Source: Parachlamydiales bacterium (lineage in GTDB: Bacteria; Chlamydiota; Chlamydiia; Chlamydiales; JAJFMK01). Taken from it: a stretch of DNA of 64,000 bases. The notes under the pieces were generated by a model. It saw nothing but the letters and a program-made list of their open reading frames with translations. It was not told where the DNA came from and did not search any database. Positions 18,059-21,000 of the stretch are shown here, one piece after another. Numbering within the stretch: position 1 is the first letter of the stretch; every line of letters starts with the position of its first letter. The stretch lies in NCBI GenBank assembly GCA_963765145.1, contig CAVXVG010000018.1, positions 64,001-128,000 of the forward strand, given 5' to 3'. Made by a program: the position numbers and the translations under genes.

Positions 18059-21000
18059 ATGAGCTATTCGCTTCCTATTTCTACCAAATCTGGTGTCATT
18101 CCATGTCAAGCACCTACTTTGCTTGCAAGGTGCTTCCACCAATCGCTTTTATTAGAAATTTTCAGAAAAAATACAGGGGATCTTTTTGGAAAAGTAACTG
18201 ATGGGGAAAGATCCCGCGATGTTCTATTAAGGGGTCTTCCTTCAACACTCCCTTCTTCACTTTTAGGAAGAGCCATTACAGCATTGCAAGGATGCAGATT
18301 TGCTTGGGATGGGAATGCCATTACACTAAAGCTCTCCCTTTTGGGAGGAGGCTGCACTCAATCCACTTCAAGAAGAGAAGAGCCGGCTCAACCTGTACAG
18401 ATGATAAATTCTGTAGACGACACGCTACCTCCGGGTTGGGGGATTCCTAGAAGGAATCAGGCTTTCATTGGTCGTACAGCCCTTTTAACCGAAATGAGGA
18501 AGAAGCTGACAGAAAGCGGCGAGGCAGCTATTAGCCAAGTGGCAATAGCTGGCCTTGGCGGTGTGGGGAAAACAGGTCTTGTCACCGAATACCTCCACCG
18601 CAACAGGAATAACTACAGCGTTGCTTGGTGGATCTCAGGTGAAAACCCCATGAGTGGTTATAGGGATTTAGGAGAATCGCTTGGCATCGTGCAACCTGCA
18701 GACAAAGGAGATGTTGTCCTTAAAGCTGTTGGAAAGTGGCTTGAGACCCATTCAAACTGGATTCTTGTCTTCGATAACGTCGAAGACCCCCAAAAGATTG
18801 CCCCCTTTCTTCCCGCTTCAGGCCAAGGTGGACACATCCTCACCACCTCAAGGAATCCGCACACAAAAAATTGCCTGATAGTTGATCTCTTCTCTCCCGA
18901 GGAATCGGTCGAGCTTCTCACTCGCCTCACAGGGCAGTCTGCTTCTGCCGAGGCCGAAAAGCTTGCAGAGGCTCTTGGTCACCTTTCTCTTGCCCTCACA
19001 CAGGCAGGAGCCTATATGAAGGCAACGCAAACATCGTTTGCCGATTATCTTTTCATCTTCGGACAAGAGAGAAAAGCTCTCTGGCAAGATGAAGTGGCCC
19101 CTAAAGACTATCCTGCCACCGTTGGAACCACCTGGAACATCTCAGTAAAAAAGATTCGGAAAGAGATGCCAAAGGCCCTTGAGCTTCTCTATCTCTCTGC
19201 CTACCTTGCTCCCGACAACATCCCCAAATTCCTTTTTTCTGCAGAAGGCCAAGAATCTCTTGCTCTCGCTAAATGGCTCCACAAATTGCAAGCTTACAGC
19301 TTTTTTACCATAGGTCAAAAAGAAGAGAGCTACTCAGTTCATCGCCTTGTTCAAGCAAGCACACGCGATAGCATCGAGCCCCTTAAAGAAAAAGCCCTCC
19401 TTCAAACTATTCAAACCCGCCTAAATAAAGAGTGGGAATTTCACTATCAAGACCCCTCCACCTGGACAAAAGGTAGGCTTCTCCTCGACCACTTAGCTGC
19501 CTTTGCGAGCCACGGGAAAAAGAACCAAGAGTTTTTGCCTGCTATCGCCACCTTCTTCAATGGTTTGGGGCTGTGGAGCGATTTCATTGAGATTAATCTT
19601 TTACTAGCGATGGATTACCATAACCGGTCTCTTGGAATCAGAAGGGGAATCTATGGAGAAGAGCATCCCGATGTTGCGGATAGCCTGAACAACTTAGGGG
19701 ATGTTTACCACGAACAAGGCAATCTGCCAAAGGCGATCGAGCTCCACACTCAGTCTCTTGGAATCAGAAGGGGAATCTATGGAGAAGAGCATTCCGATGT
19801 TGCGACTAGTCTGAACAACTTAGGAGAGCTCTATAAAGCCCAAGGTGATCTGCCAAAGGCGATCGAACTCCACACTCAAGGCCTCCATATTTTTAGGAAG
19901 GTCTATGGAGAAGAGCATCTCAGTGTCGCGGTTAGCCTGAGCAACCTAGGGGGAGCCTACCAAGCCAAAGGTAATTTGCCGGAAGCGATCGAGCTCTACA
20001 ATCAATCTGTCAGTATCAGAAGGAAGGTGTGCGGAGAGGAGCATCCACATATTGCACTAAGCTTAAATGAATTAGGGGTGGCATATGACGAGCAGGGCAA
20101 TCTGCCTAAAGCGATCGAGCTCCATACTCAAAGCCTCGCGATCAGAAGGAAGGTCTACGGAGAAGAGCATCCCGTTGTCGCAACTAGCCTGAATAATTTA
20201 GGGGAGGCCTACAGAGCTCAAGGGAATCTGCCTAAAGCGATCGAGCTCCATACTCAAAGCCTCGCGATCAGAAGGAAGGTCTATGGTGAAGAGCACCCCG
20301 CCGTCGCAAGTAGCCTGAATAATTTAGGGGAGGCCTACAAAGCTCAAGGGAATCTGCCAATGGCGATCGAGCTCCATACTCAAAGCCTCGCGATCAAAAG
20401 GAAAGTCTACGGCGAAGTGCATAGCGATGTTGCGGTTAGCCTATACAACTTAGGTTTAGCCTACCAGGCACAAGGGGATTTTCAGAAAACAGTAGAAACA
20501 TATAAATCTCTCCTTGCTGTGCAAGAGCGTCTTTTAGGAAAAGAAAGTGAAGAGGTTGCGGATGCTTTGTTCAATTTGTCAGTAGCTTATGCCGAAATCT
20601 TTAAGTTAAAGGAGTGCTTTGAGTCTCGTGGGCAAGAACTAGAGATCATAAAAAAACTCATGAACGATAAGCCTGTCTATGTCGCCTACGCAATAGGACG
20701 ATTAGGCCATGTTTATCGACTTGATGGTCATTTTAATGAGGCTAGAAAGCTGTATCAAGAGGCTCTGGAGCTGATCCAAGCTTCGTCTGGAGACGCTTGT
20801 TCCGACTTTGCTATCTACCTCGACCTGACTGGTAGAATTTTTTTAGCAGAGAATAAACTCGAAGACGCACTTCCCCTTTTTGAAAAAGCTCAGGCCGTTA
20901 TCAGCAAAAGTCCAGATAAAGAGGGTGAATGGATGGCCTATATCTTGAGAGACCTTGGAGAAGTTCACTTAAGGCAAGGTGAGCATAAAATAGGAATGAC

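Follow-up and report, generated by a model that had tools for sequence, protein, structure and literature searches.

A leader domain with a ubiquitin-type diglycine tail precedes unrelated, eukaryote-like cargo in environmental chlamydiae

We identified a conserved N-terminal leader domain in the product of a gene within a 64,000-nucleotide stretch of the genome of a Parachlamydiales bacterium (contig CAVXVG010000018.1, positions 64,001 to 128,000; hereafter the window, to which all coordinates without a contig refer). The genome assembly is 2.68 Mb in length and 85% complete. The gene encodes a 1105-residue STAND/NLR-like protein (Table 1), whose open reading frame (ORF) starts with an ATG at 18059 downstream of an AGGA sequence at 18050-18053. 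An alternative in-frame GTG is present at 18008, but the ATG with its AGGA is the better fit to the paralogues. The leader is connected by a short linker to a Walker motif-bearing NTPase domain, which matches NB-ARC (PF00931) with 32 bits against a cut-off of 23.5 and is followed by repeats matching TPR_12 (E=1e-142). The junction between leader and cargo reads ITLKLSLLGG/GCTQSTSRR, where G96-G97 are the codons at 18344-18349 and G98-C99-T100-Q101-S102 are encoded at 18350-18364. Both the coordinates and the ORF agree with the first-pass annotation, which had described a leader of ~97 residues ending in this way directly before GCTQSTSRR, a linker and the NTPase. That annotation had also read the leader as ubiquitin-like, with its removal yielding a lipid-anchored NLR-like effector.

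Table 1. Features of the leader gene and associated elements in the window
Feature	Coordinates	Strand	Basis
Leader-NB-ARC-TPR (STAND/NLR-like) protein, 1105 residues	18059-21376	+	ORF, domain scan
Ser/Pro/Thr-rich N-terminal stretch, residues 1-19, low model confidence; candidate type III secretion signal	18059-18115	+	
Folded leader core, residues 20-91: predicted four-stranded meander, helix, beta-hairpin	18116-18331	+	Predicted model
Tail L-S-L-L-G-G, residues 92-97; predicted cut after G97	18332-18349	+	Family consensus P-[RK]-[LG]-x-G-G
Predicted new N-terminus G-C-T-Q-S-T-S-R: Gly1/Ser5 myristoylation consensus, Cys2 candidate S-acylation site	18350-18373	+	
NB-ARC (STAND NTPase) domain, residues 142-304; Walker A 18551-18574	18482-18970	+	Above Pfam cut-off
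DUF7779-like segment behind the NTPase	19157-19381	+	Below Pfam cut-off
TPR repeat array	19658-21373	+	Pfam
Relic of a second leader gene: leader end and GG/G-G-K-N-S tail	21374-21472 (within 21332-21544)	-	Profile match
USP-family protease in two ORFs (8046-9110, 7360-8118), about 9 kb from the leader gene	7360-9110	-	Pfam; membership in the system not shown

Judged by sequence comparison, residues 20-97 of the leader are an unnamed domain of approximately 80 residues ending in x-L-x-G-G, and its members form a family beyond chance. Searching this genome with a profile built from its first ~100 residues gave 13 ORFs at E<=8e-15 (11 of them seeds of the profile), followed by the relic at 0.007 and the next match at 2.8. 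With a broader profile ending at the GG the identical 13 ORFs are on top, the last one at E 0.009 owing to a 5' part in a different frame. The GG is followed by a third Gly in 12 of the 13 ORFs, with Ser at tail position 5 in 10 of these 12 and Cys at positions 2-3 in four. In 1199 long ORFs of the same genome (2520 GG sites), Gly follows GG at 10% of the sites and Met at 2.9%, and S/T is found at position 5 in 46 of 253 sites where GG precedes Gly. A closed genome of the same genus contains a best match with only 33% identity in the leader and 36% in the NTPase region; nevertheless, its junction GG/GCTQS agrees in every letter. The motif is thus both conserved in homologues and enriched in the proteome. 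The ratio of nonsynonymous to synonymous substitution rates for the leader is 0.14-0.34 in four paralogue pairs (92 codons), a signature of purifying selection on the leader core. Other STAND-TPR paralogues of this genome have different N-terminal modules in place of the leader (by their look ADP-ribosyltransferase-like, TIR-like or ankyrin; C21:79919-84523, C29:9746-12253, C21:192925-197988, C26:58599-62294 and C1:70126-81226), and the N-terminal slot therefore appears interchangeable.

We examined the junction in 73 non-redundant leaders (<80% identity). The leader ends in GG in 70 of these, and a profile built without the last six residues gave a similar picture (GG in 60 of 63). The consensus of the 70 tails is P-[RK]-[LG]-x-G-G, with Pro at P6 in 38, R/K at P5 in 41 and either L/V/M (50, including 45 Leu) or Gly (20) at P4. 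Eleven tails end in LRGG, and four are exactly RLRGG. The residue following GG is most often Gly (40), then Met (11), Ser (5), Ile (4), Val (3), Ala (3), Leu (2), Cys (1) and His (1). None of the 70 tails starts with Met-Gly, so that they are not simple captures of eukaryotic starts.

The tails that start with Gly show a strong position-specific bias. Ser is found at position 5 in 26 of 40, compared with position 4 in two and position 6 in nine, while only 3 of the 30 other tails have S/T at position 5 (Fisher p=3e-6; within-tail resampling p<=5e-5). This bias persists when the sequences are thinned to <35% identity (17 of 28 versus 2 of 14). Cys at positions 2-4 occurs in 10 of the 40, all 10 of which also have Ser5, and in 1 of the 30 other tails; K/R is present at position 6 in 18 of the 40. 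These tails resemble the Gly1/Ser5 consensus for acylation as given in passages of two papers (PMC2708883, PMC11467418). The proposal that a leader with a ubiquitin-type tail precedes a conserved G-x-x-x-S, often with a Cys, is thus borne out by the sequences. In runs of four Gly the Ser is fifth counted from the third Gly in seven of nine cases; the register therefore depends on the first GG and not on where the run stops. Among the sequence data, this argues best that the bond is cut and the segment is not simply a linker, and we consider cutting at the GG very likely.

A reading in which nothing is cut, the leader being a secretion, chaperone-binding or clustering module and the GG(G) a flexible joint or a recombination point, appears improbable. 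The three leaders without GG fit such a module, as does the reading of the shared N-terminal domains APD1 and APD2 of Amoebophilus as anchoring or clustering modules in passages of PMC3482391. However, a linker leaves unexplained why Ser is fifth from the third Gly at any run length, why Cys is confined to positions 2-4, why Met starts 11 of the 30 non-Gly tails, and why L/G is found at P4 and some tails are exactly RLRGG.

The leader domain is present in 20 Chlamydiales genomes with eight family codes (union of genome searches). A cultured carrier, Parachlamydia sp. AcF125, has at least six copies. The count of 20 genomes is a lower bound since only the best candidates of each genome were scored. 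Matches with three alignments were found in 4 of 400, 10 of 401 and 12 of 400 genomes of the phylum, and in two families in 10 of 73 and 3 of 7 genomes. None of 30 genomes of another family, which have sizes of 1.0-1.2 Mb and probably represent the Chlamydiaceae, had a match, nor did one genome of the same genus (88% complete) and one of the same family (78% complete). A search of 1.8 billion representative sequences returned 43 matches, three of which are false; these three (P0015, P0025 and P0027) are repeat proteins and were excluded from the count. The leader was not matched in 121 genomes of the Legionella family, nor on plasmids with two leader queries, and a strict DNA pattern found 13 genome and 31 metagenome loci of which none scored with the leader profile; none of these three results shows that the domain is absent there.

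The proteins behind the leader are unrelated to each other and eukaryote-like, and include NB-ARC, NACHT, TPR, LRR, U-box, OTU, ankyrin, patatin and CHAT domains as well as many of no known kind. Some leader genes are arranged in tandem clusters, each gene with a different cargo (G268:C1:2102092-2107235 and G142:C1:486706-490655). Three closely paralogous leader-ankyrin-TPR(-CHAT) proteins (P0060-P0062) carry the NCBI label 'Candidatus Obscuribacterales' and are near a Parachlamydiales protein (P0059); the label reflects either mis-binning or transfer.

The predicted fold of the leader is not that of ubiquitin. AlphaFold2 models of two subfamilies (mean pLDDT 87 and 85) both consist of four strands, a helix and a hairpin (beta4-alpha-beta2), with the GG a few residues beyond the last strand. 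The two subfamilies are homologous (hhalign 96.7%) and have no rows in common. The beta-grasp order is two strands, a helix and three strands, from which the order in the leader models departs. Aligned with hhalign to 23 ubiquitins from 26 giant-virus loci, the leader matches only in the last 12 columns, with a probability of 2.3% (shuffled controls 1-8%), and without the tail the probability is 0.4%. Given the differing predicted fold and the alignment of these 12 columns only, the leader would mimic the tail of ubiquitin and not be a ubiquitin-like protein (Ubl). The description of the leader as ubiquitin-like therefore holds for the L-x-G-G at its end but not for the fold.

Database searches did not assign the leader to a known family. 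No significant family was found in Pfam (44- and 16-member alignments, best E 0.02) or NCBIfam, the PDB sequence search gave no significant match, and the ESM Atlas gave no usable one. The top PDB match of one profile was a divergent ubiquitin-S27a fusion, at a non-significant E=0.11. A match to argininosuccinate lyase (E 0.005) covers part of the profile only and was judged spurious. Fold searches with the leader models gave no match at E<=0.001 or Z>=5 to any structure, Ubl structures included, among the best 50 rows. Heads of XRCC4 and SAS-6 recurred in these searches (Z about 4, root-mean-square deviation 3.5-3.8 over 74-82 residues) and are within noise.

It is also conceivable, though very improbable, that the tail is a bait for the host ubiquitin system or that the freed leader is itself active, as a decoy, a conjugatable modifier or degron-bearing waste, with acylation of the cargo secondary. 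The exact ubiquitin tails of four members, the purifying selection on the core and the several U-box or OTU cargoes are consistent with this. However, the strongest signal comes from the cargo residues behind the GG, there is no ubiquitin fold for an E1 enzyme, and all members found are cargo fusions or short fragments, with no conserved stand-alone leader gene among them.

Several observations bear on delivery and on the protease that would cut the tail. In 49 leader proteins, S/T/P/N make up a fraction of 0.37 of the first 20 residues, compared with 0.24 in 1128 ORFs. There is no strongly hydrophobic signal stretch in these 49 proteins by a crude measure (best 12-residue window in the first 36 residues <=1.67, Kyte-Doolittle mean). 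The SctV/FlhA export-gate family is present in all five leader-bearing genomes tested; like the N-terminal composition, this is suggestive only. Parachlamydiaceae have expanded ubiquitin-related families with type III signals according to passages of PMC4209131, in which the leader is not described.

Proteases were searched for in five leader-bearing genomes. USP-family genes occur in all five and OTU in four; this genome has three USP-family loci, including the one in the window, and one OTU. The window USP is divided between two ORFs, while its orthologue in the closed genome of the same genus is a single frame of 590 residues. Contigs of related strains from two public runs show small indels around it and several other genes of the assembly are split too, so that the division may be an assembly error. 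A pair of large proteins conserved between this genome (L063, contig C21) and the closed genome (L064) have a C-terminal USP domain behind an N-terminal region of unknown kind. No C48 protease was matched in this genome, which is 85% complete, and no JAB protein scored above the cut-off in the five.

With these genes, the bacterium itself could carry out the same maturation through a USP- or OTU-type protease, either co-delivered or acting before export; the first-pass annotation had allowed for a bacterial enzyme. We consider this unlikely. Although a USP is found in every leader-bearing genome tested and an OTU in most, USP-family genes occur in 126 of 201 genomes of the phylum and the leader in 12 of 400, and co-occurrence is uninformative; one leader-bearing genome (G091) has no USP among the matches listed, and another (G142) has no OTU match. 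In the closed genome of the same genus, the USP orthologue is at 2.24 Mb and the GCTQS-bearing gene at 0.44 Mb. The abundance of USP genes and the loss of linkage mean that neither proximity nor co-occurrence supports a partnership, and the USP 9 kb away, to which the first-pass annotation had pointed, is a real gene but not a specific partner of the leader. The lack of C48 and JAB matches likewise speaks against a protease of the bacterium's own.

A bacteriocin-type double-glycine leader, removed at export by a C39-peptidase ABC transporter, is a further alternative that is already largely refuted and hardly credible. C39 peptidases cut after GG with a hydrophobic P4, and a weak C39 match is present in four of the five genomes. 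However, the match is a stand-alone protein of ~260 residues, which each of the four genomes encodes within the same small, conserved operon, and no C39 peptidase fused to an ABC transporter was found in the five genomes (this genome being 85% complete). Additionally, C39 leaders are helical, whereas a beta-strand precedes the GG in both leader models, and acylation-type tails are sensible only in the eukaryotic cytosol.

Taken together, these observations suggest the following route. The protein would enter a eukaryotic host cell, and its Ser/Thr/Pro-rich N-terminal stretch would most likely direct it there by type III secretion. A protease that reads the ubiquitin/Ubl-type x-L-x-G-G tail and does not need the ubiquitin fold would then cut after the first GG, a step for which the sequences argue strongly. 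Myristoylation requires the host cytosol, and a host enzyme is for this reason the simplest choice; the likeliest would be of the deubiquitinase (DUB) or ULP class. No N-myristoyltransferase was found in the five genomes, in a search in which no control matched either. The cut would give the cargo a chosen eukaryote-style N-terminus. Here and in about a third of the family this is G-x-x-x-S, which the host N-myristoyltransferase would acylate; with S-acylation of the nearby Cys, the NB-ARC-TPR protein would be tied to host membranes. Other members would receive Met or another, mostly degron-neutral residue. The suggestion of a lipid-anchored NLR-like effector system thus fits the G-x-x-x-S of the protein studied but is too narrow for the family, which has many cargo types and about 40% non-Gly tails.

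We regard it as probable that environmental chlamydiae have fused a portable pro-domain to unrelated host-directed proteins and that the host protease and acylation act on it as described in full. More tentatively, and as a possibility that falls somewhat short of probable, the pro-domain would be a non-ubiquitin fold mimicking the ubiquitin tail alone, with a host diglycine-specific protease setting the N-terminus of unrelated effectors as a myristoylated Gly or a Met. The catalytic cores of ZUFSP, a eukaryotic protease, cut an RLRGG peptide and not ubiquitin, as reported in passages of PMC8776766; such enzymes therefore exist, which does not imply that one acts here.

A number of points weigh against this route. 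The predicted leader lacks the ubiquitin fold that most DUBs require, and a folded domain must unfold for type III passage. Because the first profiles contained columns of the tail, the database matches may be biased towards similar tails. Ser5 is missing from 14 of the 40 Gly-starting tails, and Gly occupies P4 in 20 of 70. All ten weaker matches that were not counted among the 73 have the terminal GG, but Ser5 is present in none of their three Gly tails and two tails start with Asp. The domain is kept in the 3 of 73 leaders without GG, which implies a role apart from cleavage. Finally, the Ser5 state is clustered on a FastTree tree, in the lineage of this genus (9 changes, compared with 21 when shuffled), so that the p-values given above overstate independence; Ser5 also recurs in other branches of the tree.

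The relic of a second leader gene opposes the STAND gene and is 70% identical over 33 residues to a paralogue at C26:65411 of the same genome. Upstream of the leader gene, a local duplication (17492-17762 versus 16839-17109) has 84% identity, and the region 17759-17936 duplicates part of a D-Ala-D-Ala ligase gene (21743-21920) with 91% identity. The leader gene is therefore flanked by partial and intact ligase copies, as if inserted. A palindromic repeat of ~95 bp at 17342-17443 has 319 blastn matches in the genome in both orientations, hence roughly 160 copies, and resembles a miniature inverted-repeat transposable element or a repetitive extragenic palindrome. The gene at 9167-10330 (minus strand) adjoins the USP and encodes a 387-residue protein with a hydrophobic middle, without a Pfam or NCBIfam match and by its look translocator-like or an inclusion protein. 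At 24011-24776 (plus strand) a Gp49-like (DUF891) and HTH_37 pair is likely a toxin-antitoxin module.

The portable domain is real and apparently undescribed, and its junctions show a strong statistical signature of cutting after GG and, in a subset to which this protein belongs, of host acylation. Full-text literature, in which subscription journals are mostly outside coverage, gave no account of the leader domain or of the maturation route. In addition, a term search of the accessible text of a 2026 review on bacterial ubiquitin effectors (PMC13720258) did not return 'myristoyl', 'fusion' or 'ubiquitin-like domain'. The leader may serve as a sequence tag that predicts effectors, mature N-termini and membrane targeting in uncultured chlamydiae. 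If true, the route would be an undescribed form of effector maturation and would point to a host protease able to cleave after GG when no ubiquitin fold precedes it, raising the question of which eukaryotic protease this is.

In Amoebophilus, the N-terminal region shared by many effectors ends in a pair of glycines. The APD1 and APD2 domains of this protist intracellular symbiont resemble the leader as lineage-specific N-terminal domains of host-directed effectors with U-box, OTU, STAND, GTPase, TPR and ankyrin cargo; they follow a signal peptide and lipobox and are read as surface anchors (passages of PMC3482391 and PMC3417536). In contrast, the leader has no strongly hydrophobic stretch, and the same passages mention neither GG cleavage nor host acylation. 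Homology to APD1/APD2, if true, could reduce the novelty of the domain itself.

The body of the protein also resembles the FxSxx-COOH system TPR protein (NCBIfam NF040586), matching in its NB-ARC-TPR part with 480 bits against a cut-off of 300. However, the match starts at residue 129 and leaves the leader uncovered. Neither an FxSxx peptide nor a radical SAM gene is present among 22 neighbouring proteins scanned, no search having been aimed at either.

The leader is similar to the precursors in which ubiquitin or a Ubl is fused to another protein (e.g. ubiquitin-eS31/S27a) in being a small N-terminal domain with a beta-strand and L-x-G-G at its end, joined in frame to a cargo whose N-terminus is defined by the cut. 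It differs from them in its predicted order of secondary structure, in lacking profile likeness beyond the last 12 columns and in being bacterially encoded. The plant NLRs RPS5 and PML5, which have N-terminal G/C residues for myristoylation and S-acylation (passages of PMC11467418), are likewise STAND NTPase-repeat proteins with lipid-anchor residues at the mature N-terminus and provide a precedent for a lipid-anchored STAND protein. However, in these NLRs it is the loss of the start Met that frees the Gly, and the next domain is a coiled-coil, whereas the Gly here is buried at residue 98, with a short linker to the NTPase.

By analogy, the closest precedent appears to be the AvrPphB-type effectors. 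In AvrPphB, ORF4 and NopT, cleavage after delivery frees an N-terminus with Gly at P1' and Ser at P5', and the host then attaches myristate and palmitate, which target the protein to the membrane (passages of PMC2708883). The chlamydial protein would share with them the N-terminal pro-piece, the Gly P1'/Ser P5' pair and a nearby Cys (G98, S102 and C99, respectively). However, AvrPphB, ORF4 and NopT are self-cutting cysteine proteases, while the Pfam scan of the STAND-TPR protein gives NB-ARC and TPR only, with no YopT-type cysteine protease domain, and the protein is not a member of that family. The ubiquitin-type GG site, the folded leader shuffled onto unrelated cargo and the many tails starting with Met also set it apart. 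Bacteria normally cannot supply an effector with a free N-terminal Gly behind a secretion signal, and the known solution, that of AvrPphB, works only for an effector that is itself a protease. A detachable module acted on in trans would, if the proposed route is correct, free any cargo from this requirement.

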